Assembly (NCBI GenBank): GCA_030753015.1
Contig: JASMDC010000060.1
Location: 1-17,169 of the forward strand
Length of the DNA: 17,169 bases
Reading direction: 5' to 3'
Source: Candidatus Undinarchaeales archaeon
Lineage (GTDB): Archaea > SpSt-1190 > JASMDC01
A program made the position numbers and the translations under genes. Of this stretch, positions 3,901-16,117 are shown in pieces; positions within the stretch are counted from its first letter, which is position 1; every line of letters begins with the position of its first letter. The notes beneath the pieces are model-generated. The model did not search any database. It was given only the letters and a program-made list of their open reading frames with translations, and had not been told where the DNA came from.

Positions 3901-5057
3901 TCAGTCTCACTGCGTCCCCGGGTGGGAAGGCGAACTTCACCTTGCAGGTGGTCAATGCAGCACCGGAGCTCAGACGTGTCGAGCTCACCATCGGCGGTTC
4001 GATCGGACCGTGGCTCTCCCTCGCCGAGACCTCCCTTACCATCCCCACCGAAACTTCCAAGGATGTGATGGTCACTGTGGACGTGCCTTCGGGCACCGAG
4101 ACCGGAAGCCTCAGCGGCACCATCACGTCAACGAGCGGTGAGGAGGAGAGCGTGGCGAAGCTCTCCCTGTTCGTTCTGGAGCGAAAGGCATCCTGTGGTG
4201 ACGGTACCTGCCAACAGGAGGAGGACTGTAAGGAATGCCCGAAGGACTGCGAGTGCGACAATCGGCTCCGGCTCAGCTTGCCGGCCGGAAAGATCATCAT
4301 CGCAGCGGGGATCCCCCAGAGCATCAACGTGGAGGTGCGTAACACAGGTGAGGGTAACCTTACTGATGTCGTCCTCGAGGTCACCATCAAGAAGGGTTCT
4401 GTCAATGTCACTCCCTCCAAGGTGGACATCCCTAACGCTGATGGGGCCATGTTCAACCTCACGCTCATGGTCTCGGAAGAGGGCTCGTATGACCTCCTCG
4501 TCAAGGCCACCTGCACCGAGGGTGCACGGAACGCCAAGCGGCTCGCCATCGAGGTCTCACCGGCACCGCCCGAAGTCATTGAACCCAAGGACGACCTCGA
4601 GGACGACCTCGAGCAGAGCGAGCTGAAGCTGAGGGAGGCCGAGGACAGGATGACCGCGCTCGTCGAGAAGGGCACGGAAGAGGAAGCGCTGGCAGAGCTC
4701 GAGAAGCTTGTCACCGAGGCACGGACAAACGTGGAGATGGCCCAAGAGCTCGCCTCCGATGGTAAGCGTGAGGAGGCGGCACGGCTCGTAGCAGAAGCCG
4801 AGAGCTCCCTGGAGACCTATAGGAGCAAGGCACGGAAGCTGGAACGCGGCTCGGACGTGGAAGATGTACCATCATCCGGATCGAGGATCTCAGGTGTGTT
4901 CAAGGCGTTGCTAGGACTGCTCATCCTGGGTATCGGTGCGTTCGCGATCTCCCTTCGAAAGAAGCCGCCGGCCAGTCCGCCCCAACAGGTCTACGCTGGA
5001 TACCAGGCAGCCCCCATGATGCAACAGGGCGGGTATTACGGCGGCAGGTACATGTAG
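999..5057 (+). CDS. Large Cys-rich type I membrane surface glycoprotein (adhesin/receptor-like), 1352 aa from ATG 999
   Basis: The domain order is: signal peptide MRPARRLGVILVVAALLFHGAFA|ATC; CCGD repeats (1107-~1900); five 12-Cys repeats (2448-3512); two short CGDxxCxxxEDCxxCxKDC modules (3513, 4194); three Ig/CARDB/NEW3-like domains (PGKTARAAVSVFN, PGGKANFTLQVVN, AGIPQSINVEVRNTG); an acidic helical stalk (~4590-4845); a TM helix (4887-4955) followed by RKK; and a P/Q/G/Y tail. It has many N-x-T sequons (NCT, NVT, NDT, NTT, NET, NGT, NFT, NLT). Confidence 0.93.
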   Translation: MRPARRLGVILVVAALLFHGAFAATCGPQSSYCDDNGYCRTGVYVTVYNADDDEYFCEQCKHQIWKEDADTGSGECCGDDGLDDDWCGKYGYCFDGVWKDVYGEDDSPFHCQSCNGGTWHESGYCCGDTPDESWCRDDGYCFEGQWMTVTDPNTNEHYCTNCVDIDQDGVADGAWKIDLDSGQPTCCGDEILENWPGQGGVCNLGEWLSGDCIDVNDCIDEPWLTCTSNQKECTNHHCRYNKDCSFCSDADWCTFCAADDPDLTERSCTCAGYVWHDITCCGDDSGEHYFEDKRLCCQDPDSCTSGNECYTEGTMKLFFITKVCVGGVWVKVDVLPGSFYSGALSVSLPVWIVGTSARCTTDDTAPCRGISGSHNVVLGEDDEDIYMRIENWDFTTALDLSTLEFTYDPEGYSVYFRNGLSVPVSFRMKRRDGGVLERWDVSTSSWRALADHDGLEVTEREDGSYIIRDTKSTTASIRDPEGTCGDDVCDVNLGDCDNGCAECNVASCAADIDCNLEVGERCDNAPSQCTCPDGYSCDPEQLVSDERGCYTASCGNGVCDPGECNLPCPDCDRRECVDDFCSVYLEENCTIAPECGCDDSALCDTGDARSDAKGCFIPKCEDSVCDLVHIDLAKNVTVDLLPLRECDRACLGCDLVTCANDTRCNIGIGENCTNSKIHCACPIDQVCDPLNALADEKGCYSKGCGDGTCDPGECDIACVDCNTTVCALDLKCNTAFNETCASLPTQCPCLEGWKCNIAHPLADERGCHDPKCGDGQCDPGECASNCADCSLAVCTGDLLCTFTGEDCKSSPLDCQCDAAKICAPDDPRSDEMGCYSTSCGDTLCEGSEDCSSCTKDCGECLSLLTPVVDASVPPGKTARAAVSVFNQAKDALTISLSHDAPAELTYPRMLRVEAGQTRAIDVHVKLDENARGAFNGTLTITAGEESHTAIIQVTVKGTTTVYLGQEQFSLTASPGGKANFTLQVVNAAPELRRVELTIGGSIGPWLSLAETSLTIPTETSKDVMVTVDVPSGTETGSLSGTITSTSGEEESVAKLSLFVLERKASCGDGTCQQEEDCKECPKDCECDNRLRLSLPAGKIIIAAGIPQSINVEVRNTGEGNLTDVVLEVTIKKGSVNVTPSKVDIPNADGAMFNLTLMVSEEGSYDLLVKATCTEGARNAKRLAIEVSPAPPEVIEPKDDLEDDLEQSELKLREAEDRMTALVEKGTEEEALAELEKLVTEARTNVEMAQELASDGKREEAARLVAEAESSLETYRSKARKLERGSDVEDVPSSGSRISGVFKALLGLLILGIGAFAISLRKKPPASPPQQVYAGYQAAPMMQQGGYYGGRYM
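1107..1900 (+). repeat. Protein-level repeat type A: GYCxxGxW...CxxC...W...CCGD(D/T/E)...W
   Basis: CCGD motifs begin at 1224, 1371, 1554 and 1836. GYCRTGVY, GYCFDGVW, GYCFEGQW and GVCNLGEW recur. Confidence 0.8.
2448..3578 (+). repeat. Protein-level repeat type B: five tandem 12-Cys modules of 66-84 aa plus one short module
   Basis: Units start at 2448, 2658, 2856, 3108 and 3312, with a short unit at 3513. Each full unit begins CGDGxCD-like and ends (S/A)D(E/A)(R/K/M)GC. Confidence 0.92.
4590..4613 (+). repeat. Perfect 12-bp tandem duplication (GACGACCTCGAG x2) encoding DDLEDDLE
   Basis: It is read directly from the sequence and is in frame at the start of the helical stalk. Confidence 0.85.
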
Positions 5058-5065
5058 GGCCGCCA

Positions 5066-5082
5066 GCAAACATTATTTATAC
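5066..5082 (+). promoter_or_regulatory. Putative archaeal TATA box (TTTATA, 5076-5081) for the giant gene
   Basis: CAAACATTATTTATAC lies in a 55-nt intergenic gap, about 32 nt upstream of ATG 5113. Confidence 0.7.
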
Positions 5083-5112
5083 TTCGACCGCGAACCGTGT
5101 GCCGAGCTAGTT

Positions 5113-8100
5113 ATGGGACTGGAACGCGTAAGGACCAGGATCGCATTGACCCTTTTCTTTGTCCTGACAGCGTTATCCACGGGCCTGCCCTTCCTCCCCG
5201 GTCTCGCAGGCCCTGCGGGAGCTCCTCTCGTACCCGCTCTCCCGGGTATGCCTGGTTTCATGGATTTCATGGGACCGTTCCTCCCGCCCTACGTCGAGAT
5301 GGCGTGCCTCGGTGAGTATTACACTGAGTGCCAGGACATCTGGAACTGCGTCGAGGCCTTGCACGAGAGCGATCCCGACGTCAATCTCTGGCTCACAGCT
5401 ACTATCGGCTTCAAGCAGGATATGCGCCTCGTGATCCCGGACGAGCTCCCCCTTACGACCGAGCAGGCCGCTTACGCGATGTTCGGGCTCGTCGTCCCCA
5501 ATCCCATCCCGGTCTCACGCACATCGGTCGATGACATGGCCAGATACTATGTTCTCACCCGATGTAACGCGGTGAAGGCTATACGCGATCCCTTCTGCGC
5601 ACAGTTCAGGGATAGGTTCGGTGAGCGGTCCTCACTGGTCGTTCCCTCTTGCCTGATGCCTCTCCAGTTCAACGATGCCCCAACTGGATTGCGCCCCTGT
5701 GATACCTATGTCAGCAGGGAGGGGACGACCCTCTGCGACTGCATGGCGGCCGCGGGTGGTGATAAGAGCATGTGCACCGGGTTCAAGAGCCTCTGCTCCT
5801 ACGCCGTCGTGAAACAGAACGCGCTCACCGATCCGGGGCTGGCCTCAGCGGCGGACACGGCGGCAGAGGCTGTGGCCGCTGGGGATGATCTTGCGTTCTG
5901 TCGCGACAATCCACTGTGCGCCCGCTCTTGGCCGGACACATCGGCCGTGGACGAGGGCGACCTGGCCACATGGGCCGGCAGGACATGCGCTCGCGAGCTG
6001 AATTACTTCGCGCTCAAGACACTCACCCTCACCCCGACGGGTGCAGAGCACGAGGACCTGACCGCGCGACTTTTCGGCCCGTGCACAGGCGATAAGAAGC
6101 AGGACTGTCTGGCCAACCGGACATGGCTATCCGGTGACTTCCTGCTCCAGTCCTTCACCTCCAACCTCTACGCTCTTAGCAGGAGCCCCTTGGTCAAGTG
6201 CCGTGAGCCGGCACTGCGTATGATCGATACGCAGAACTGTGGTGCGTGCTGGTCGGAGACCCTCTCCTGTTACGAGAACGTACTGGGTAAACAAGTCCCC
6301 CGCAGCCGCGAGGAGCAGCTCACGTCCGGGCTGGTCGACGGGCTCCTACGCCAGCGTTTCGGCACTCTCCACACGTTCCTGGACATGGGGACGGCGGCAG
6401 GTGAACTGGGAATGAGCCTGGCAGGGTGGGGCGATCCCATCTCTGCTGCTGACTTCTCCTCACGTGTTTTCTATGGCGCGTTCTGCATCTCGCTCTGTCG
6501 AATGAAGGGATCTTCGGCCACCGGTGACGCGGCGTCAGGTGACGCGTCAGCAGACTGGATGCGCGCCTGGGGCAACGACGACGAAGTGGCGGGCCTCATG
6601 GTCGGCCACAGTTCGTACAACGCTCGCAGCGGCGAGGCGGCCGAGGTGTACCTCAACCTCATGTTCGGACCTGAGTTCGCTTCCTTAAAGAACGGGTACT
6701 GGCTCCTCGATCCAAAGAAAGTGGCCCAGTGTCCCGCCTACCTGCGGGCCCAGATGGCGCTCCCCCAACCTTCTGCTGATGGACTTTCGGGACAGACGTC
6801 AGCGGGTAACTACCCCTGGCGTGTTGTCATCTCTCGCACCGCCTGGGTGGCCTGCCCCCACAACCTGAAGCTGCCAGCCACAGGCTCGTCCGACGAGTAC
6901 TTCATTTACGACGCCAAGGACCGCCTCTGTAAGACAGGGGTGTTCAAGGACCGGACCGACCGGTGCTACTTCTCGGGCAAGAAACCGACAGGGACGGCGT
7001 GGCGGAAGGGAGGGCTGTTGGATGGCGCCATCGGTCTCGTTTCGGGGACCCTCTTCGATTCGTACGACGAGAGCGCGTTCAAGCCCCGCATCCTCCAGCC
7101 TATCACGGTCAATCCTGGCGATGTACGCGAGCACGTGTTCGGCGTGGTCCTCAACTGTACTGGCCCCATGGACGAGCCGGTGGTCGCCACCTACGCCGGT
7201 GCACCGAAGGTGAAGTGGGTCTACGACGTCTCCAACGATGCGTTCCGTCCCCGCCATGTGTGGCAGTTGTGCAAGGGTGACTCGTGCGAGGAGACCCGGT
7301 ACGTGCACGACCTGCGTGAGATCCCCACGCTCATGGACGAGGAGGAGTACACCCTCCCGCGCCGCATGGGACTGCTCTACGACTGCGCGCGCTGGTTCGA
7401 CAAGGAACGGGGAGTGTGCCTACGTGTCGAGCACTACGGTGTCGACGAGCTTGTCAAGCCACAGGTCACGACCCACCTCGAGCTCCGCGGGTGCGATCGG
7501 TCGGGGATCCGCTGCGACCAGAGCGAGGAGCAGCGCCTGGAGCACGTACCGTTGCTGATGTTCGGTACCGTGGCGGGAAGGCACTATCCCTTCGTCCGTC
7601 CGCTCGAGGCCAAGGAGCAGCCCCTGGAACGGGGTCCGCTCACCCATGTGTTCGATCCCGAGATGATGCTGGACATGGTGTACGACAAGGAGGACTTCCC
7701 GTTCTACCGCAGCACGGGCGGGGACCAAGAGTGCATCAACCTCTACACCGGTGGGTACAACCGGGAGGGGACTGGGAAGCTGGCCGGTCACCTGCTCGGG
7801 CTGGCCTCAGATCCCACAAATCCTTTCGGTCTAGCCGGGATGCTGACCTCGACACTTGATCCGTCCTCATCGGACCTGTCCGGATATTTTGCCCGGAGCG
7901 ATGTCCCCGCTGGTGACCTCCTCCGTTCCGTGGCCGATAACCTCCAGGACTCCATGTCGACGGTCATGCGCATGCAGGGAACCCTGAACCTGTTGGGTCC
8001 ACAGTCCGCTACGTTCGGCGAGAACCTCTCCGCGGAGGGCCGGGAGATGGCCTCGTCCCTGGGCGGAGCGCGCGCCCATAATGAGATGGTCGACGAGGGA

Positions 8101-11100
8101 GTTGCCGAGGCGGCGCGGGTGATCGGGCCGCTCGTAGCATCGATCGTGGCAGAGACCGCCGCTGACGTGGAGTCAGTGACCTTTGCACGGCTGTCCGACG
8201 CCCTTCTCCGTACTGAGGACGGCGTCCCTCTGGCCACGCTCGACGACGTCCATACTTCCGTGGCCGCCCGCCTCGGGCACGACGTTGCTGACGGTCTATA
8301 TGAGCTTGGCCTCAAGCTACTGGCCGAGGATCCTGAGACCGTGCTCTCCGGTATCGATCCGCCCCTCTCACCCGGTGACAGGGCATGGATTATCGGGACC
8401 GAACCGGACCCGGCCATGTGGGACGCCCGGCTCGGTGCCGACATCGCCCGTCAGCTCCGCCACGCCCTCATCCGCTCGGCACGGGACATTCTTCTCTCCG
8501 AGGGCCTAGTGGTGCTGGAAAAGTACGGGATGTCGTCCCTCCACGAGGCGATGATAGCTGACGCCGCCGGTGACCTCCTGCGTCAGGAGCGCCTTCTCGC
8601 CTCCTCGCGCGACGTGCTCCTCAGGCTGATCGTGCAGGACAATGCACAGGACACGGTCCACAACGCGCGCTACCGATTGGGGGACGGCTCGCTCAAGGAG
8701 CTGCGGATGCTGGGAGCCCGGACCATCGCCGTCGAGGGAGAGGGCGTGCTCACGTCCGCCGGTATGCGGCGACTGGCCACGGCCGCTGATGGATTCGGTT
8801 CGCGCGAGCTCGCAGAAGCGCTGGAGAGCGAGCCCTTGACGGTAGTGCCCCGGATCCGAGTGTACTTTGGGGACACGGTCGCCGACAGGATCGAGGAGAT
8901 GCTTGTAACGACGGATGCCGCCACTCTTGCCGCCCGTGTGCGCTCCAGCGGTCTGGAGGGTCTTGGCAACACAGATCTCACCCAGACCACGGTCGCTGTC
9001 GCTGCGCGAAGGCTCGTATCCCAGGGCCTAGCATCCGATGATCCTGCTACTGCCCTGGGCGAGCTGTCCGACGACCTTGCATACGCAGGCATCCGCAGGG
9101 CCGCATCCCTAGGCCCCGATGCAGCAGGACCGCTCACCGCTCGCGCAGTTCGCACGATCGGTGACGATGAATCTCCTGATGATGACATCGCGGTCCTCCG
9201 AGAGGAGCTCAAGGACGCCCAGACCACACGGATGATGCGCATGCTCGCCGAGGATCTCGGGCCCGAGGGCTTCTATCGACTTGTTGCCGATCCTTTGGAG
9301 CTCGAACAGCGAATGAAAAGGCTTGCTGCCCGTCGCCGGCTGGAGGTAATCATCGACCGGCTCACCGCGGGCAATGGGCTCGATGCCCTCGTCGATGCCT
9401 TCAGCGGGCCACTCATGTCACAGGAACGACTTGTGATGCTGGGCCGATCTTACCAGCGCCAAGTGTTCATACGAGCTCAGAAGCTTGCCCCCGAGGGGGC
9501 TCCCACTGACGACGTATGGGCCAACGCGGCTTCGCTCGTGCGCACTGTGTTCACGACAGAAGTTGAGGAGCGGTACATGCAAGACGCGGTGCGTAACACA
9601 CAGAACATCATCAGCGCACGGATCGCCCGTGACCTGGACATCAACGAGCAGGCAGTGAAGGATATCGTCAGGACGCGGATGAAGGCCACAGGTGCCACCG
9701 CTCTGTTCGGCGAGCGGCTCGGTGACGTGGTCTCGAGGGTGTTCGACGACGAGTTCTACGACCTGCCGTCATCCTACATCGAGGACGCTAATCGTCTGGC
9801 AGAGGAGATCGAGCTCGCGGCCCGACGCCAGGCCGAGGAGATGGCGCTCGCTGGGCTGACCGGCTCATCGGACCGCCCAAACACGCTCGCGTTCTCGAAA
9901 GCGGCCCTCATAGATTCCCTTGTGATCGCCCGCAAGCCACAGATCATCTCCGGACTGGCCAGTCCTCTCTACATAGAGGGAAGCCGGAACGCCTTTGGCG
10001 TTGACTGGACACAGGGATTCTTCACGTACATGGCCTCCCTGTGGCGCATCCCTGGATCGAATCCGCCCCAACGTTTCGCTGACAGCTTCGTCGACCGGTT
10101 ACCGGACGCGACCAGCAGGGTATGCCGGGATGAGGGATGGGAGCATATCGTCGTCCGATGCACCGATCCGGCCACATGTGGTCCCGAGGCTGTCCGTGCA
10201 GGGACGCCCGAGGCAAGGCTCCCGGAACCGCCCCTGCAGACCGTCGAGCTGCTGCGCCAGGCATCGCGCTCACCTGCTACCTGCCAGGACGAGTGCGCAG
10301 GTGGCAACGAGCTCATCTATACCAATGGGACCTGCCCGTCCTTCCGACATCTGAACCGGAAGGACCACCTCGACTACATTGCTGTATCGTTGGCCAACCG
10401 CCGTAAGTACCTCGAACGACTGCGCACGACATTGGAGGGGCTGGCCGACGCCACCGAGCGCCGATGTGACGCATGCAAGAACGCCCTCGACGGGCTGGAG
10501 AGCGTCTACGGCGACTGCGTGTTCGCCCTCGACGAGGACATCTGGGATGCCCTTCTCCGCGCTGGCCAGGCACCTCCCTCTCGGGACAAGACGCCCATCA
10601 TCGGTGATTTCCTGGCCACACGACAGGGGAGCGAGCTGCGTGCCGGATTCGCTGACGAACTTGACTACGTGGGCGCTGTCCGCCTCTGCACCGAGCTGTG
10701 CACCTACTGGTCCGCCCAGAATGCGATAGGTGAGAGCTATCTTGAGGGAAGGCTCAAGAACTGTCCGCTCCTAACCATGTCAGCCACTTGCGCAGGTGAC
10801 ATTGCCGTACCGGCGGGGAACGAAGCCGACACCGCCGGTGTGGTGGCCGAACCCTCGGGCATCGCTACCTGCGTCAAGGACGTGCTCGCCACCAAGGAGT
10901 CGTGCACCCTCCTGGGCCTGCGGTTGTTCACCGGAAAGGGCTCGCGGGTGGAGGGGGAGATCGAAGTGGACGATACTGGCTCGGACGATCCTTGCGAGGC
11001 GGCCCGACCCCTCCGTAGGCTCGTGTCCTTCCTTGACGACTACCTCCCTCATCTCGAATCGCTCCGTGGGAACGTTACTGGCTACCTGAAGGGTGCACGC

Positions 11101-14100
11101 TGTCTGGACGAGGCCTCGCTCCCCGAACGTGGCGAATGCCCGTCATGTATCGACGGCGGGACGTACTGCAACGAGTTGCTCGACGCATCGATCCACGATG
11201 CCCTGGCCGAGCTCATGACAGTGACCGGCTTCGGACTCCCCCCCATGGACCAGCGTACGTTCGTCACCCGCCTCACCCAGCTGGTGATGGCGACGGCCGG
11301 CGACCTCAATCCTTCCTACCGCCGGGCTGTTGCCCGCAGCTACCGGGCAAAGGAGGATACCTACCTCGTGTTCGATGAGGGCACGGGTCATGGCCCGACG
11401 GAAGCGCACCCCATGAACGTGAGTTTGTGGTGGGACGTGGTCCACGAACCGTCTGCCGTTGTACGGAACAAGATCCCCTTCACGCTATCACCACGGCTGG
11501 ACGTGACCGCGGCGACCGATCGCGGCCTCGACAATCTCTGCGAATGCCCTGGAGGATGCTTCCTCGCACAGGTCCACCCACGATGGGCGGATAGGCGATG
11601 CAGCGATAGTTCAGACCTGGACACCGATGCGAACTTCTATGACGACGTGTTCCCCGCAGGTACCACCCTCCACGTCAAGCAACGCTTCGAGAACGGAGCC
11701 TTCGTCACCGACTCCCGGGTTCTGGATGATCCCGTGGACGAGGATGCAGACTGCGGCGAGCTCGCATCGAACCAGATCTTCCCCACGTCGGATAACTACT
11801 ACATGGGCTCCGGCGACCTGTCAGGCGATGGCAATGGCGCCCCCCCCGGGAACAAGCGGCTCGTGAACTCCCTCCTGGGCAATGAATGGCGCACGGTCCT
11901 TCTCGAGGGGCTTGCCCGCGACCTGGGGCTCGACACCGTCGTTCCCTGCGCCCCGGCCTGTGGCAGAATACCTGGAACGGTCTCCGAGCAGGGCGCGTTC
12001 CCGCGCTGCGTGCGATGCGAGAACGGTGTATGCGACCTGGAGACCAACTACCCCTTCCATACAGCTGCGGACGCACGCCAGTTCCTGATCAACGCTGCCT
12101 ACCCGTCATCCGTGCCACTGCTCTGCTCAGCCACGCGTACCGCGGGCGACGCTGCTGCTGACGAGGCGACCGACCTCAAGGACCACTTGCGCGAGCTGGG
12201 GGCGCTCTCTGCCGTCTGGCTAAACCGCCTCTTCCCAGTGGACCCATCGTGCTTCGACCTCAGGACCGGTGAGCGCACGGGTGCGGAACGGGTGCAGGAT
12301 TGCCAGGAGGCGTGCCTGGCGCACAAACCGCCGGAGGCGGCCGATGAACTTCTCTACGGCTACTGCCGCGCTGTCGTCAGGGACGAGAGCGTCACGGGAG
12401 TATGCCACTGCGCCACCATCTCCGATCCGCTGGGAACGCCCGTCTCCCGGCCCGAGCCCAGTACGAGGGACGCCTTCCCCATGACCTGCCGTCTTCCCAA
12501 GGAGGCCGCACACTACCGTGAGCTCGCGGAGTGCTGTGTCCGAGACCATGGGTGCTCGGACCTCATCTCCTTCTACAACGGTGATCCTGACGCCTTCGGA
12601 TGTGCTTGCACCACTGGCAACATAGCCCTTGACGCCTACCAGTGCATCGGGACGGCCGAACCGCGTCTGGTTCTCGAAGAGGCGTACTTCAAGGTCGGGG
12701 GCAGTCCATCGCGCACGCATGCTTTCCGGGGCGAACGTGTGCGATCGTGCGTGGTGCTCACAAATGAGGGAGGGGCCACATTCAGGGGTCCGATCGTCGT
12801 GGAGCCGCTGGACACGGGCGGCGTGCCAGCATGGACCCGGCCCGATGGCTGTGACCGGCCTCCGTCCTGCACGCTCATGGGCACCCTGCGCCTCTCGACC
12901 GCGATGCCGGCCGCATCGCTGGCCCTTCCCGGGGGCCGCGTGCTGGAGCTCGAGCTCGCTGGCATCGATGCGGACTGTACCGTGCACCTGACCACCCGGC
13001 TCGCCGCCGAGGGCGTCGTCACAGAGGTGGTCATACCCGCCCATGCAGACGACCTCTGTTCGATCGCGACCATCACGGACGAGGTGCTGGTGGCGGCAAC
13101 TGTCCCGGGGACGGTCTGTGACGAGGCGACGGCCCTGGTCCAGATCCGTGTGCAGGTCCAGACACATCGCGGTCGGTGCGCCATCACCAACAACTGCGAC
13201 GGTGCTCCACCTCTCGACCTGGTCGCCACACGGCCTGCAGGCCCATGTGCACACACTGCAGCACCTTTCACAGTCCAGCCAGGAGAGAACATAGCTGTAT
13301 GCTCGGCTCCAGTGGTCGTGACCGAGACCCTCCTAGGTACTGGCCAGGCCGGCGAGCTCTCCGCACGTATATCTGCCTGGCACGATGACCGTGCTGTGCT
13401 GAGCAATCTCACCACCCGGTCCTACCTCCCGCTCCGCAGGGGTCATCCCGGTGTTGAATGGATCGCTATCGGGGGGGACGTGACCGGTGACGAGACGTTC
13501 CCCGGCTCCGCTGTCGGTGTGCGTGCCACGCTTGCCAACAACCTCGACGAACCCTTCTCAGGTGTCCTGCGCCTGACCATCACCGACGACCTCGGCAACA
13601 CCCTCCTCACAGAGACAAGGGACGTGCCGCCGATACCCGTAAGGGATGTCGTGACCGTCTCGACCACGACAACGAACATCGAGCCAGAGGATGTCGGCAG
13701 AAAGCTGCGGGCGGGGCTCACCCTCTGGGACGCCGTTGGCGTGAAGCGCTACGATCTCACGCCCGACCACACATACCCCCGAGCCTCCGTGGTTGTGGCG
13801 ATGCCGCGCCTGACCGTCGAGGACGGCTTCTTCCGGGAACCCGACGGGGATACACGGCTCTCGACCGCACGCACCTGCGACAACGTCAGAGCGCTCGTTG
13901 AACTGTCGAACCCAAGCCCGCTCGGTTTCGCCGGACGGTTGGCCCTCTCGGTGTACCATGTGGAGTCCAATGACCTACTGGCTACGGCCGTGGACAACGC
14001 TTTCCGGCTCCCGTCAGGGGCACGCACCTCAGCTCTCCTCACGTCACTGGAGCTCGTGGTTCCGTCACTGGGGACCTACCTCATCCACGTCAACCTCACG

Positions 14101-14457
14101 GACCGCAATGGTGTCCGCTGGCACGAGGGGAACGTGGACGTGGCCGACCATCCCTCGGCACGGCTGCGCGTTCGCGAGGACGGCCCGTCCTGCGATCTCC
14201 CACCGTCCTCCATACAGGCCCCTGCGGCCATCGATGTGTCCTGTCCGAAGGGTGCCCGCACACGCCAGCTCCAGTTCTCCTACTGCACTGGCGGTGGATG
14301 CCTCACACGAAAGAACGGCGCTGATGGTTGCTATATGCTCGTTCTGTGCGACGGCTGCCCTGAAGAGTTCGTTCCACAGGTCGCGACCCGGACAGACGGC
14401 TCCTGCCAGCTCGCGAACGCGCCATGCTGTGAGGACTGTCGTATCCAAGTGCGGTAG
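5113..14457 (+). CDS. Giant (3114 aa) secreted Cys-rich multidomain protein of unknown function
   Basis: The 9.3-kb ORF is uninterrupted. It begins with the signal peptide/anchor MGLERVRTRIALTLFFVLTALSTG. Residues ~65-874 are Cys-rich, residues 875-1670 form a Cys-free helical core, and Cys-rich sequence then resumes. Three CARDB/Ig-like units start at 12661, 13447 and 13804, followed by a Cys-rich C-terminal cap with no C-terminal TM helix. Confidence 0.92.
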   Translation: MGLERVRTRIALTLFFVLTALSTGLPFLPGLAGPAGAPLVPALPGMPGFMDFMGPFLPPYVEMACLGEYYTECQDIWNCVEALHESDPDVNLWLTATIGFKQDMRLVIPDELPLTTEQAAYAMFGLVVPNPIPVSRTSVDDMARYYVLTRCNAVKAIRDPFCAQFRDRFGERSSLVVPSCLMPLQFNDAPTGLRPCDTYVSREGTTLCDCMAAAGGDKSMCTGFKSLCSYAVVKQNALTDPGLASAADTAAEAVAAGDDLAFCRDNPLCARSWPDTSAVDEGDLATWAGRTCARELNYFALKTLTLTPTGAEHEDLTARLFGPCTGDKKQDCLANRTWLSGDFLLQSFTSNLYALSRSPLVKCREPALRMIDTQNCGACWSETLSCYENVLGKQVPRSREEQLTSGLVDGLLRQRFGTLHTFLDMGTAAGELGMSLAGWGDPISAADFSSRVFYGAFCISLCRMKGSSATGDAASGDASADWMRAWGNDDEVAGLMVGHSSYNARSGEAAEVYLNLMFGPEFASLKNGYWLLDPKKVAQCPAYLRAQMALPQPSADGLSGQTSAGNYPWRVVISRTAWVACPHNLKLPATGSSDEYFIYDAKDRLCKTGVFKDRTDRCYFSGKKPTGTAWRKGGLLDGAIGLVSGTLFDSYDESAFKPRILQPITVNPGDVREHVFGVVLNCTGPMDEPVVATYAGAPKVKWVYDVSNDAFRPRHVWQLCKGDSCEETRYVHDLREIPTLMDEEEYTLPRRMGLLYDCARWFDKERGVCLRVEHYGVDELVKPQVTTHLELRGCDRSGIRCDQSEEQRLEHVPLLMFGTVAGRHYPFVRPLEAKEQPLERGPLTHVFDPEMMLDMVYDKEDFPFYRSTGGDQECINLYTGGYNREGTGKLAGHLLGLASDPTNPFGLAGMLTSTLDPSSSDLSGYFARSDVPAGDLLRSVADNLQDSMSTVMRMQGTLNLLGPQSATFGENLSAEGREMASSLGGARAHNEMVDEGVAEAARVIGPLVASIVAETAADVESVTFARLSDALLRTEDGVPLATLDDVHTSVAARLGHDVADGLYELGLKLLAEDPETVLSGIDPPLSPGDRAWIIGTEPDPAMWDARLGADIARQLRHALIRSARDILLSEGLVVLEKYGMSSLHEAMIADAAGDLLRQERLLASSRDVLLRLIVQDNAQDTVHNARYRLGDGSLKELRMLGARTIAVEGEGVLTSAGMRRLATAADGFGSRELAEALESEPLTVVPRIRVYFGDTVADRIEEMLVTTDAATLAARVRSSGLEGLGNTDLTQTTVAVAARRLVSQGLASDDPATALGELSDDLAYAGIRRAASLGPDAAGPLTARAVRTIGDDESPDDDIAVLREELKDAQTTRMMRMLAEDLGPEGFYRLVADPLELEQRMKRLAARRRLEVIIDRLTAGNGLDALVDAFSGPLMSQERLVMLGRSYQRQVFIRAQKLAPEGAPTDDVWANAASLVRTVFTTEVEERYMQDAVRNTQNIISARIARDLDINEQAVKDIVRTRMKATGATALFGERLGDVVSRVFDDEFYDLPSSYIEDANRLAEEIELAARRQAEEMALAGLTGSSDRPNTLAFSKAALIDSLVIARKPQIISGLASPLYIEGSRNAFGVDWTQGFFTYMASLWRIPGSNPPQRFADSFVDRLPDATSRVCRDEGWEHIVVRCTDPATCGPEAVRAGTPEARLPEPPLQTVELLRQASRSPATCQDECAGGNELIYTNGTCPSFRHLNRKDHLDYIAVSLANRRKYLERLRTTLEGLADATERRCDACKNALDGLESVYGDCVFALDEDIWDALLRAGQAPPSRDKTPIIGDFLATRQGSELRAGFADELDYVGAVRLCTELCTYWSAQNAIGESYLEGRLKNCPLLTMSATCAGDIAVPAGNEADTAGVVAEPSGIATCVKDVLATKESCTLLGLRLFTGKGSRVEGEIEVDDTGSDDPCEAARPLRRLVSFLDDYLPHLESLRGNVTGYLKGARCLDEASLPERGECPSCIDGGTYCNELLDASIHDALAELMTVTGFGLPPMDQRTFVTRLTQLVMATAGDLNPSYRRAVARSYRAKEDTYLVFDEGTGHGPTEAHPMNVSLWWDVVHEPSAVVRNKIPFTLSPRLDVTAATDRGLDNLCECPGGCFLAQVHPRWADRRCSDSSDLDTDANFYDDVFPAGTTLHVKQRFENGAFVTDSRVLDDPVDEDADCGELASNQIFPTSDNYYMGSGDLSGDGNGAPPGNKRLVNSLLGNEWRTVLLEGLARDLGLDTVVPCAPACGRIPGTVSEQGAFPRCVRCENGVCDLETNYPFHTAADARQFLINAAYPSSVPLLCSATRTAGDAAADEATDLKDHLRELGALSAVWLNRLFPVDPSCFDLRTGERTGAERVQDCQEACLAHKPPEAADELLYGYCRAVVRDESVTGVCHCATISDPLGTPVSRPEPSTRDAFPMTCRLPKEAAHYRELAECCVRDHGCSDLISFYNGDPDAFGCACTTGNIALDAYQCIGTAEPRLVLEEAYFKVGGSPSRTHAFRGERVRSCVVLTNEGGATFRGPIVVEPLDTGGVPAWTRPDGCDRPPSCTLMGTLRLSTAMPAASLALPGGRVLELELAGIDADCTVHLTTRLAAEGVVTEVVIPAHADDLCSIATITDEVLVAATVPGTVCDEATALVQIRVQVQTHRGRCAITNNCDGAPPLDLVATRPAGPCAHTAAPFTVQPGENIAVCSAPVVVTETLLGTGQAGELSARISAWHDDRAVLSNLTTRSYLPLRRGHPGVEWIAIGGDVTGDETFPGSAVGVRATLANNLDEPFSGVLRLTITDDLGNTLLTETRDVPPIPVRDVVTVSTTTTNIEPEDVGRKLRAGLTLWDAVGVKRYDLTPDHTYPRASVVVAMPRLTVEDGFFREPDGDTRLSTARTCDNVRALVELSNPSPLGFAGRLALSVYHVESNDLLATAVDNAFRLPSGARTSALLTSLELVVPSLGTYLIHVNLTDRNGVRWHEGNVDVADHPSARLRVREDGPSCDLPPSSIQAPAAIDVSCPKGARTRQLQFSYCTGGGCLTRKNGADGCYMLVLCDGCPEEFVPQVATRTDGSCQLANAPCCEDCRIQVR

Positions 14458-14468
14458 TTGCGCCCAAG

Positions 14469-14483
14469 GCCAACCTTTATATC
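14469..14483 (+). promoter_or_regulatory. Putative archaeal BRE/TATA (CCAACCTTTATATC, with TTTATA at 14476-14481)
   Basis: A canonical TTTATA lies about 35 nt upstream of ATG 14516 in an AT-rich intergenic gap. Confidence 0.72.
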
Positions 14484-14515
14484 ACATCTCACATTCGTCT
14501 AAGTAGGTTTGAGAA

Positions 14516-14776
14516 ATGGCCATCACGTATCTTGAGGTCGCACAGTGGGTTGACCGGGAGCTCATCAGGAACAAGGAGATGGCCGAGCTGAAGGAGCTCC
14601 TTCTCGAGACCGCCGGGGCGATCATCGAGGTCGACTGCGGTCAGCAGCCCAGGATGAGCCCCGAGCTGTACGCCCTGGCGAGTAGCACGAACAAAGAGAT
14701 CCTCGAGGACTCCCTCATCGACGTCGAGACCGACCTCCGCAATGTGCTCAAGAAGAACGCCCAGTGCGGGGAGTAG
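14516..14776 (+). CDS. Small acidic, probably helical cytoplasmic hypothetical protein (86 aa)
   Basis: It has its own TATA-like box and strongly G/C-ending codons, and it fills the gap between the giant gene and the convergent gene. There is no signal peptide or TM helix. Confidence 0.85.
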   Translation: MAITYLEVAQWVDRELIRNKEMAELKELLLETAGAIIEVDCGQQPRMSPELYALASSTNKEILEDSLIDVETDLRNVLKKNAQCGE

Positions 14777-14785
14777 TGCCGTTCT

Positions 14786-16039
14786 TTACTTGTTCGTGTT
14801 CTCCAGCACGTGCGCTTTCGCGAAACGGTCGGTAATCACGAGGTCCTGGTCACCGTCACCGTCCATGTCGGTAAGGCGCAGGTCGCTCTTTCCGGCGAAG
14901 CTGTTATACCCGCCGACACTGCCAGCGTCGGTGAACTGGCCGTCCTGGTTCTTGAGCACGTGCGCTTTCGCGAACCTGTCGAGCACGATCAGGTCGGGAT
15001 CCCCGTCGCCGTCGATGTCAGCGATCTCCACGTCACTATGGCCTGCGAATGAGTTGTAGCCGCCCACCGAGCCGGTATCGATATACGTACCGTCCTGGTT
15101 CTCCAGGATATGCACACGGGCGAACCGGTCGGCCACCACCATGTCAATGTCACCATCGCTGTCCAGGTCCACGAGCTCCGCGTCGCTGTGGCCGGCGAAC
15201 GAGTTGTAGCCCCCGACGCTCCCGGTGTCCACGTACTTTCCATCCTGGTTCTTCAGTATGTGGGCGCGGGCGAACCGGTCGGTCATCACGGCGTCGAGGT
15301 CACCGTCGCCGTCAACGTCCGCGAGCTCGACGTCGGCATGTCCCGCCCAGCTGTTGTAACTATCGGTTGAACCGGTGTCTACGAGACGCCCTCCGCGGTT
15401 CTCAAGGACATGGGCACGGGCGAACCGGTCGGCCACCACGGCATCGAGGTCACCATCGCCGTCAACGTCACCCAGCTCCACGTCCGCATGACCGGAGAAG
15501 CTGTTGTGTCCGGCGATCGTGCCCGTCTCGATGTACGAACCGTCGCGGTTCTCAAGGACGTGCACCTTGGCGAACCGGTCGGCCACCACGAGGTCGAGGT
15601 CACCGTCCCCGTCGAGGTCCCCGAGCTCAGCGTCACCGTGGCCGGCGAAACTGTTGTAACTACCAGTGGAGCCGGCGTCCGTGTAGGTCCCGTCCTGGTT
15701 CACATGCAGATGAGTACTGGCGAAGCGGTCCGTCACGACGATGTCGGGGACACCGTCACCGTCGATGTCGCCCAGCTCCACGTCACTATGGCCCGCGAAG
15801 CTGTTGTAGCCCTCGGCCGAGGACTTCTCTTGGAACCCCTGGTACTTCACCGGGCCGGAGGGCTTGTCATCCGATGACCCGGTACAACCGGACAGGAGGA
15901 ACGCGACGCCCGCGGCCATGAGGACCGCACCTCCGACCTTCGCTCCGTCCAGGTCATCGGCCCGCGCATACCCCTCGGCAGCGTGAGCGTTGCCATAGAC
16001 AGCTCCATCGGTCGTGGTCTCGAGATCGACATCGTACAT
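14786..16039 (-). CDS. FG-GAP/VCBS-repeat seven-bladed beta-propeller lipoprotein (417 aa from ATG 16039)
   Basis: There are seven repeats, each carrying a DxDGDGxxD(L/I/A/M) Ca2+-binding motif. The hydrophobic stretch VGGAVLMAAGVAFL is followed by the lipobox LSGC (Cys codon at 15886-15884). An AGGTG SD-like motif lies 7 nt upstream of ATG 16039. Confidence 0.93.
   Translation of the reverse strand: MYDVDLETTTDGAVYGNAHAAEGYARADDLDGAKVGGAVLMAAGVAFLLSGCTGSSDDKPSGPVKYQGFQEKSSAEGYNSFAGHSDVELGDIDGDGVPDIVVTDRFASTHLHVNQDGTYTDAGSTGSYNSFAGHGDAELGDLDGDGDLDLVVADRFAKVHVLENRDGSYIETGTIAGHNSFSGHADVELGDVDGDGDLDAVVADRFARAHVLENRGGRLVDTGSTDSYNSWAGHADVELADVDGDGDLDAVMTDRFARAHILKNQDGKYVDTGSVGGYNSFAGHSDAELVDLDSDGDIDMVVADRFARVHILENQDGTYIDTGSVGGYNSFAGHSDVEIADIDGDGDPDLIVLDRFAKAHVLKNQDGQFTDAGSVGGYNSFAGKSDLRLTDMDGDGDQDLVITDRFAKAHVLENTNK
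14789..15808 (-). repeat. Seven tandem 150-bp (50-aa) repeat units without indels, the last truncated
   Basis: The YNS/HNS-coding decamers recur on the + strand at 14901, 15051, 15201, 15351, 15501, 15651 and 15801, an exact 150-nt period. Confidence 0.95.
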
Positions 16040-16084
16040 GAGCGAACACCTGTTCCTTCCAGTGCTGTCGCGCACGGCGTCCGC

Positions 16085-16111
16085 TATTTAAGCATTGCTT
16101 TGGAGCGCTCC
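16085..16111 (-). promoter_or_regulatory. Putative TATA box (TTAAATA, 16091-16085) overlapped and flanked by two palindromes
   Basis: The minus strand reads AAAGCAATGCTTAAATAG about 46 nt upstream of ATG 16039. The palindromes are AAGCA-T-TGCTT (16090-16100) and GGAGCGCTCC (16102-16111). Confidence 0.65.
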
Positions 16112-16117
16112 GAGGGA

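Follow-up and report, generated by a model that had tools for sequence, protein, structure and literature searches.

Protein A, a giant protein of 3114 amino acids (aa) from the Candidatus Undinarchaeales archaeon assembly GCA_030753015.1 (here G000), belongs, as judged from its sequence, to an orphan family of three paralogues (A, B and C) that is known from one genus only and has an unusual build within the giant secreted archaeal surface proteins. The window referred to throughout is the whole stretch of DNA analysed, the 17,169-nucleotide (nt) contig JASMDC010000060.1 (C74 in G000), and the gene for protein A (P0001) occupies its positions 5113–14457 (+) as one open frame that runs from ATG to TAG, with the stop codon at 14455–14457. 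Gene A is genuine and is constrained by purifying selection, and its product, with a calculated mass of 337 kDa, carries conserved cysteine-rich parts on either side of a centre devoid of cysteine. We hold with moderate confidence that A is a secreted, disulfide-stabilised, non-enzymatic protein of the cell surface or extracellular space with a contact or binding role.

Conserved scaffolds and a variable centre

The two paralogues of A in G000, B (2792 aa) and C (2703 aa), both lie on contig C22, and orthologues of both are present in G001, another species of the genus. An N-terminal scaffold, a C-terminal core (the C core), a beta-rich region and a cysteine-rich tail of about 70 residues are common to the three proteins, and A has all four, including a C core with about 40 invariant cysteines. 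In BLASTP comparisons the N scaffold of A aligned with those of B and C at 26–28% identity over about 610 aa (expectation value, E, about 3e-45), the C-terminal part aligned with that of B at 27.7% identity over 1572 aa (E 4e-142), with a similar result for C, and the tail aligned with that of B at 39.7% identity over 68 aa (E 1.5e-7). The tail alignment has five invariant cysteines. When A, B and C from the two species were aligned as six sequences, 331 columns were invariant and cysteine was the commonest residue in them, accounting for 58 of the 331. The pattern is clearest in the C core (residues 1671–2499), where 40 of 43 cysteines are invariant across three paralogues in two species at an overall identity of about 28–30%. 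Invariance of a cysteine pattern at such low identity is a signature of structural disulfides, and it is from this pattern that we infer disulfide bonding in A.

The motifs NLYTGGY and GVDWTQGFF flank the cysteine-free centre. Between YTGGY and DWTQ, A has 753 aa and C has 600, and homology between these two centres was not detectable by BLASTP (E 1.9); in B the central cysteine-free gap is just 232 residues long, and B aligns with only 197 residues of the centre of A. On these alignments the cysteine-free centre is a variable, paralogue-specific insert between conserved scaffolds. An earlier, sequence-only reading of this DNA had described a tripartite protein, cysteine-rich at both ends and cysteine-free between. 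That description is accurate for A and fails as a trait of the family, given the short gap in B. Since the centres are not homologous, the layout is better described as two conserved disulfide scaffolds with a paralogue-specific insert than as a fixed three-part machine.

Within G000, seven segment profiles matched only A, B and C, with one exception: four other large open reading frames (ORFs) contain part of the beta region, the only part of A common to other giants; the cysteine-rich tail had no match beyond A, B and C. The copy of B in G001 carries calcium-binding TSP3 repeats (TSP3_bac, the sole Pfam family there). At that locus B appears as a 2565-aa ORF with an overlapping 367-aa ORF rich in TSP3 repeats, and a run of N near the end of the locus points to a frameshift or an assembly gap as the cause of the split.

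Layout and export of protein A

The cysteines of A number 100 (3.2%), an even count, with the first at residue 65. None occurs between residues 874 and 1671, a gap of 797, and the chance of a cysteine-free run of that length at A's own cysteine frequency is about 5e-12 per position. A hydrophobicity scan (Kyte-Doolittle mean of 1.6 over 19 aa, a level typical of membrane helices) passed a single segment, residues 10–32, so that A has no C-terminal anchor; the tail is polar and cysteine-rich, and neither a PGF-CTERM-type signal nor a membrane helix was found at the C-terminus by the scan or by reading of the tail. Tandem Repeats Finder returned 0 rows for the DNA, and comparison of A with itself by BLASTP gave no off-diagonal match at E ≤ 1. 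The sequence-only reading had noted an N-terminal signal, dense cysteine at both ends, no obvious tandem repeats and no C-terminal membrane anchor, and each of these features is borne out here.

All parts of the protein are encoded on the + strand. Read by eye, residues 1–22 (5113–5178) have the form of a Sec-type signal peptide, with an Arg-rich n-region (MGLERVRTR), an 11-residue h-region (IALTLFFVLTA), which belongs to the sole hydrophobic segment of the protein, and a possible ALS/TG cleavage site. A Pro/Gly/Ala-rich linker follows (residues 23–64; 5179–5304), at which G001 has a 15-residue insertion. The N-terminal cysteine-rich region (residues 65–874; 5305–7734) holds 34 cysteines, 18 of them invariant across the six family sequences, and terminates with the conserved motif NLYTGGYNREGTGKLAGH. 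The paralogue-specific central insert, between YTGGY and DWTQ (residues 875–1670; 7735–10122), is rich in Ala, Leu, Arg and Asp. The cysteine-rich C core (residues 1671–2500; 10123–12612), with 43 cysteines, is the best-conserved part of A, and beyond it the beta-rich region (residues 2501–3040; 12613–14232), with generic immunoglobulin (Ig)-like matches, probably forms Ig-like sandwiches. The C-terminal module (residues 3041–3114; 14233–14454), present in A, B and C, has 10 cysteines and no hydrophobic anchor.

The single N-terminal hydrophobic segment of A, together with the canonical signal peptides of B and C, argues for export. It had been suggested that an uncleaved N-terminal helix might hold A in the membrane, and here cleavage appears the likelier outcome: by reading, the signal peptidase sites of the paralogues are canonical (VLA/ED in B, ALA/DG in C), and in A the ALS/TG site is succeeded by the Pro- and Gly-rich linker. 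Reading also gave no prepilin peptidase site in A, there being no G, A or S directly ahead of the hydrophobic stretch. A non-enzymatic nature is suggested by three features, namely that no HExxH motif was found in A, that only four His are invariant in the family and that no library yielded a family. Two other candidate features were considered and set aside. The sequence GTGKL of A does not match the P-loop pattern GxxxxGK[ST] by reading, and, in place of one long coiled coil forming a stalk, the 8% Gly and 4% Pro in the centre would speak for helical bundles.

Conservation of the gene and its presence in metagenomes

The second species G001 has a collinear orthologue of A, with DNA that is 86% identical over window positions 4431–14827 and a protein that is about 91% identical. 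The ratio of nonsynonymous to synonymous substitution rates (dN/dS, Nei-Gojobori count) between the two is 0.10 overall, with values of 0.07 for the N part, 0.12 for the centre, 0.09 for the C core, 0.10 for the beta part and 0.14 for the tail; the highest value, 0.36, is that of the signal and linker (residues 1–59). There are no internal stops in A. A public protein collection contains a cluster of 3117 aa that is 93% identical to A.

The stretch is wholly or partly present in 20 of 24 listed sequencing runs, which come from 13 studies of marine, seawater and hydrothermal-vent metagenomes; the listing showed no RNA data set with the stretch. Eight of these 20 runs may be a source of the assembly itself, and the four runs that we compared are not flagged as such. 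In all four, contigs cover all 30 bins with no differing letters and no joints, and the borders of the cysteine-free region (nt 7735 and 10122) are each bridged by single contigs. Two of these runs, X9 and X10, break at identical places and are possibly not independent.

Searches for families, relatives and folds

Curated families were absent from A in Pfam and NCBIfam (E ≤ 0.1) and in PHROGs (E ≤ 0.01), and a Pfam search of four separate parts of A up to E 10 gave noise alone (E 1.6 and 8.6). Nor was a family found in the G001 orthologue of A or in either copy of paralogue C. Sequence and profile searches of the PDB with A gave nothing below E 0.15. No S-layer model of Pfam or NCBIfam matched A, and toxin families (Tc, large clostridial, RHS/YD and MARTX types) were absent at E ≤ 0.1 in Pfam, with no PDB sequence match. 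The claim that A has no recognisable family thus stands in Pfam, NCBIfam, PHROGs and PDB sequence searches, and no full-length match to a characterised family, such as an S-layer protein or an enzyme, emerged from them.

A survey of homologues in archaeal genomes, which the sequence-only reading had proposed, returned the A/B/C family in G000 and G001 and little else. A HMMER profile of residues 1620–2760, the part of A covered by this exhaustive search, matched 3 of 1,835,955,588 representative proteins, of which two fit B and C by size and matched range (unaligned) and one is a 372-aa fragment. The same profile matched 3 of 41 related archaeal genomes, these being G000, G001 and G030, the last by a weak match of 72 residues (E 9e-5). 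Of the 17 genomes searched from the phylum, a profile of the N part matched just G000 and G001, and a word-based search with the N-part alignment against the proteins of 424–1472 aa in a large collection gave no match. A scan of genome contigs brought up the three loci of G001 and no others. A word-based search with the whole of A found one cluster only, that with 93% identity; such searches are insensitive, and the query with A missed even B and C despite their sizes being in range.

Structure prediction, which had also been proposed, was carried out for two parts of A, and the models were of poor quality. With AlphaFold2, residues 60–900 (an alignment of six rows) gave a predicted local distance difference test score (pLDDT) of 32.2, which is unusable, and residues 1620–2760 gave 43.8 for a partly helical model that rises to about 80 at model residues 140–440. 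A Foldseek search of the PDB gave nothing at E ≤ 0.001, its top rows having template modelling (TM) scores of 0.04–0.06, and a search of the ESM Atlas with the C core gave no usable match. Since both models are poor, the function given here for A is a putative one. In those portions of the literature on giant cysteine-rich archaeal proteins and on Undinarchaeota giants that were available to us, we found no description of the A/B/C family or of the giants of this lineage.

The d1 and d2 genes beside B and C

B and C each lie directly upstream of two further genes, d1 and then d2, in both species. At these loci d1 encodes about 600–790 aa and d2 about 910–1090 aa. Adjacent d1-d2 pairs occur at about 20 places in G000, most of them beside giant cysteine-rich ORFs (on contigs C21, C22, C25, C26, C29, C30, C32, C36, C38, C39, C40, C41, C76, C85 and C117). 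Profile matches number 22 in G000 and 23 in G001 for d1, and 21 in each for d2, and in 39 other archaeal genomes, 15 of the phylum and 24 further ones, the two profiles gave a single weak match, for d2 in G034 (E 3.3e-7). A word-based search of a large collection returned five close relatives of d1 only, with 63–100% identity.

Of 20 copies of d1, 17 have an N-terminal [KR]G[QT] that leads directly into a stretch of about 20 hydrophobic residues, and in one more the motif is RAQ. According to a study of the Methanococcus Epd pilins, their processing sites are KGQV, KGQL and RAQI, and a prepilin peptidase site has G, A or S at position -1, often a charged residue at -2, ahead of a hydrophobic domain (PMC4371748). 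As read from their sequences, the d1 N-termini match the form of these Epd prepilin-peptidase sites. G000 also has 4 Peptidase_A24 and 5 T2SSE ATPase matches above the curated cut-off. A CarboxypepD_reg domain is present in 7 of the 20 copies of d1. The d2 protein has a signal peptide and gave weak leads to macroglobulin-type beta-sandwich domains, and in the ESM Atlas it fell to an MG2-containing cluster with a score of 0.76, below the line of 0.9. A d1-like module is also found inside a 2653-aa giant (G000:C39:26973-28205 (+), profile positions 58–476, E 6.7e-116) and in its G001 orthologue, and this fusion ties d1 functionally to the giants.

Neighbouring genes

A hexamer resembling a TATA box (TTTATA, 5076–5081, +) was read 32 nt ahead of the ATG of A, so that A may have its own promoter; the arrangement suggests an archaeal promoter with a very short leader. 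Upstream of it, P0002 (957–5057, +; 1366 aa) is a cysteine-rich protein of the type I membrane form, with a signal peptide and a C-terminal membrane helix. It combines repeated CGDGxCDxGEC-type modules, shared by many of its paralogues in G000, with Ig-like domains, of which there are two or three (FixG_C, E 4.5e-6); a charged helical stalk precedes the membrane helix. P0003 (155–943, +; 262 aa) has one membrane-spanning segment, a cysteine-containing C-terminal part, no family in Pfam, NCBIfam or PHROGs and one paralogue, on contig C51; it may be in the same operon as A. G001 keeps the order P0003-P0002-A, and there the gene preceding P0003 encodes a geranylgeranyl-reductase-like oxidoreductase.

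Directly 3' of A lies an 86-aa ORF (14516–14776, +) that has its own TTTATA (14476–14481) and no family, and the DNA alignment with G001 continues over it. Between A and a DUF4350-like gene lies a gene for a 429-aa FG-GAP repeat protein (14786–16075, -; E 7e-45), and here G001 has no counterpart: the DNA alignment skips from window position 14827 to 16117, an insertion or deletion between the species.

The host genome and its giant proteins

G000 comprises 3.85 Mb in 117 contigs and G001 is about 3.6 Mb. Because the 15 other species genomes of the phylum Undinarchaeota that were examined span 0.6–1.2 Mb, the genus is an outlier. Ribosomal protein L31e is encoded in G000 and, among the control genomes, in the four archaea only. 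The estimated contamination of G000 is 5%, and for this reason the phylum placement of the large genome needs checking.

Stop-to-stop ORFs of at least 1000 aa number 109 in G000 and make up about 14.5% of the genome, 69 of them with at least 2.5% cysteine, and 81 ORFs reach at least 1200 aa. A largely non-repetitive giant had been thought unusual, which does not hold within this genome, where 9 of the 19 other giants scanned with Pfam likewise have no family. The remaining giants carry Peptidase_M23 with NlpC/P60, NlpC/P60 alone, Peptidase_C25, a complete alpha-2-macroglobulin set, C-type lectin, discoidin with TSP3 repeats, Laminin_G_3, Kazal and FG-GAP domains. Peptidase_M23 and NlpC/P60 domains cut bacterial cell walls, and the giants that bear them hint that bacteria are attacked by this archaeon or serve as its food. 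Those at G000:C20:1136-7891 (2252 aa) and G000:C53:25296-31838 (2181 aa) have Peptidase_M23 with NlpC/P60 and NlpC/P60, respectively. Alpha-2-macroglobulin, C-type lectin, discoidin with TSP3, Kazal and Peptidase_C25 are among the families of the giants at G000:C95:71806-79320, C29:199461-207512, C38:7464-17465, C51:66067-74211 and C22:58337-65434, and G000 also has an 8360-aa ORF (C40) and a 4159-aa ORF with 15% cysteine (C51).

The likely role of protein A

We envisage that A would be exported through the Sec pathway, with its signal cleaved near residue 22, and that it would fold outside the cell into a very large disulfide-stabilised structure. The scaffolds, residues 65–874 and 1671–2500, would hold between them the cysteine-free and presumably helical insert of about 750 residues, as the variable part that gives specificity or spacing, and the beta-sandwich region and cysteine-rich tail would hold A to a partner on the cell. 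Because A has no membrane anchor of its own, it is probably the tail that docks to such a partner. As one of about 80 giant secreted proteins, A would then contact or bind other cells, particles or its own envelope. We infer the extracellular location, the docking of the tail and the binding function from the features set out above. The sequence-only reading had raised the possibility of a host-contact, membrane-penetrating or large-toxin-like machine. Of these proposals contact is plausible, given that the genome is full of giants with lectin, discoidin, FG-GAP and cell-wall-hydrolase domains. Penetration and toxicity are not upheld: neither a toxin family nor an HExxH motif was found in A, and it lacks an internal hydrophobic segment; moreover, the centre differs fully between the paralogues and is nearly absent in B, which does not fit a conserved penetration module.

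Several observations weigh against a contact or binding role as we have framed it. No adhesion-type Pfam domain is present in A itself, and neither an anchor nor a partner was found for it. With just 8 N-X-S/T sequons in 3114 aa, A has fewer than might be expected of an archaeal surface glycoprotein. Neither d1 nor d2 occurs beside A on its own contig, or anywhere on the G001 contig with the orthologue. In addition, single contigs of runs X11 and X12 match the window onward from 12661 and 12995 and are unlike it before those points. These loose ends may reflect strain-level variation, or branching of the assembly graph, within the beta region, which X9 and X10 each cross in one contig. Because the window makes up an entire short contig in a metagenome-assembled genome whose estimated contamination is 5%, an assembly chimera or a dead gene might be feared, and a chimera had been named as an outcome that would undo the earlier reading. 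We give either virtually no credence, given the collinear orthologue in a second species, the 93% identical protein of 3117 aa, the contigs of other runs that tile the gene and bridge its domain borders, and a dN/dS of 0.10 with no internal stop.

Among the other ways of reading A, one refines our preferred explanation rather than opposing it. A, B and C could be the large displayed subunits of a genus-specific, pilus-related apparatus built from d1 and d2, in which A, lying apart, would draw on d1 and d2 from other loci. The constant presence of d1 and d2 after B and C in both species, the approximately 20 d1-d2 pairs that mostly lie beside giants, the prepilin-type N-terminus in 18 of 20 d1 copies alongside Peptidase_A24 and T2SSE in the genome, and the d1-like module fused into a 2653-aa giant are all in keeping with this proposal. 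We nevertheless consider it rather unlikely for A, beside which neither d1 nor d2 lies in G000 or G001, and the processing and assembly of d1 are putative. Apart from part of the beta region, A, B and C have no domain in common with the giants that lie beside other cassettes, so that no common docking module is visible. That A might instead be a structural coat, as an S-layer-like or sheath component, is suggested by its size, acidity (isoelectric point, pI, 4.84), export and strong purifying selection along its whole length, and also by the upstream P0002 with its beta-sandwich domains, helical stalk and C-terminal membrane helix. This seems improbable to us when set against the lack of an S-layer family match or C-terminal anchor, the three divergent paralogues with non-homologous centres and the absence of the family from the 15 other phylum genomes searched; to our knowledge, a cysteine content of 3.2% and a size above 3000 aa would also be unusual among known S-layer proteins.

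A secreted effector or toxin-like machine, in which the scaffolds deliver or insert the variable centre into a target cell, would account for a paralogue-specific centre, as expected of a diversifying payload, and would sit well with the Peptidase_M23 and NlpC/P60 domains of other giants, which suggest attack on or remodelling of bacteria. Between the species, however, the centre is under purifying rather than diversifying selection (dN/dS 0.12), no toxin, enzyme or pore-forming family was found in A and no hydrophobic or amphipathic insertion segment passed the threshold beyond the signal peptide. Nor is there a small immunity-like gene attributable to A, the downstream 86-aa ORF having its own TATA-like box and no family. 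We therefore regard an effector as very unlikely, and return to a secreted, non-enzymatic contact or binding protein as the reading that we prefer. A bolder extension of it, which we offer as a speculation with a small chance of being correct, is that an undescribed surface system, amplified about 20-fold and made up of d1 (600 aa, prepilin-like) and d2 (950 aa, a secreted beta-sandwich protein), bears A, B and C as giant, exchangeable heads, whose conserved disulfide scaffolds would present a paralogue-specific cysteine-free module to a target. With its wider arsenal, including the cell-wall hydrolase giants, this marine archaeon would then capture bacteria or other cells and exploit them.

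Giant secreted proteins are thought to be the means by which small-genome DPANN archaea hold their hosts, and we know of almost none with a known structure or partner. The A/B/C family is strongly constrained, with about 58 invariant cysteines, and has no relative of the C core beyond the family in 1.84 billion representative proteins; it probably hides new folds. It also offers a natural experiment, since three unrelated centres are mounted on one set of scaffolds. In interest, the genome-wide context at least equals gene A, given the large genome, the approximately 20 prepilin-like cassettes and the cell-wall hydrolase giants. A large-genome lineage inside a DPANN phylum of tiny genomes would be notable, if true, and a 3.85-Mb relative of genomes of 0.6–1.2 Mb could show the surface repertoire before or without genome reduction. 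A surface system with exchangeable heads, if it exists, would be to a free-living or predatory archaeon what the apparatus for host attachment is to DPANN symbionts. Near-identical sequence recurs in seawater metagenomes from many studies, so there is material on which proteomics and imaging could be done.

Comparison with known systems

Archaeal S-layers, for which the SlaA/SlaB pair of the Sulfolobales is an example, resemble the present case in that their proteins are exported, acidic and large and that A lies beside a stalked membrane protein, P0002, which could be a SlaB-like anchor. A differs from them in having no family match, three paralogues with different centres, high cysteine content and no anchor.

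The nearest known kind is that of the giant surface proteins of DPANN archaea, as exemplified by the SPEARE proteins of the Nanohaloarchaeota. These are described as membrane-anchored proteins of 8,880–9,409 aa with tandem Ig/fibronectin arrays and a VirB4/TraG-like ATPase domain (PMC10266531). Like A, they are very large, archaeal and lineage-specific; they too begin with a Sec signal, have an enormous ectodomain that includes Ig-like parts, and are proposed to act in contact with other cells (PMC10266531). A is unlike them in that it has no ATPase or Ig/fibronectin (fn3) Pfam match, no repeats and no anchor and is cysteine-rich, and no sequence relation was found. With respect to type IV pilins, A has an ordinary signal peptide rather than one of the prepilin type, which is instead the form seen in the d1 neighbours of B and C. 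Repeat-array adhesins, whether built from Ig-like, cadherin-like or intramolecular-ester repeats, depend on tandem repetition that A lacks in both DNA and protein; in A, most of the mass lies in unique cysteine-rich and helical parts.

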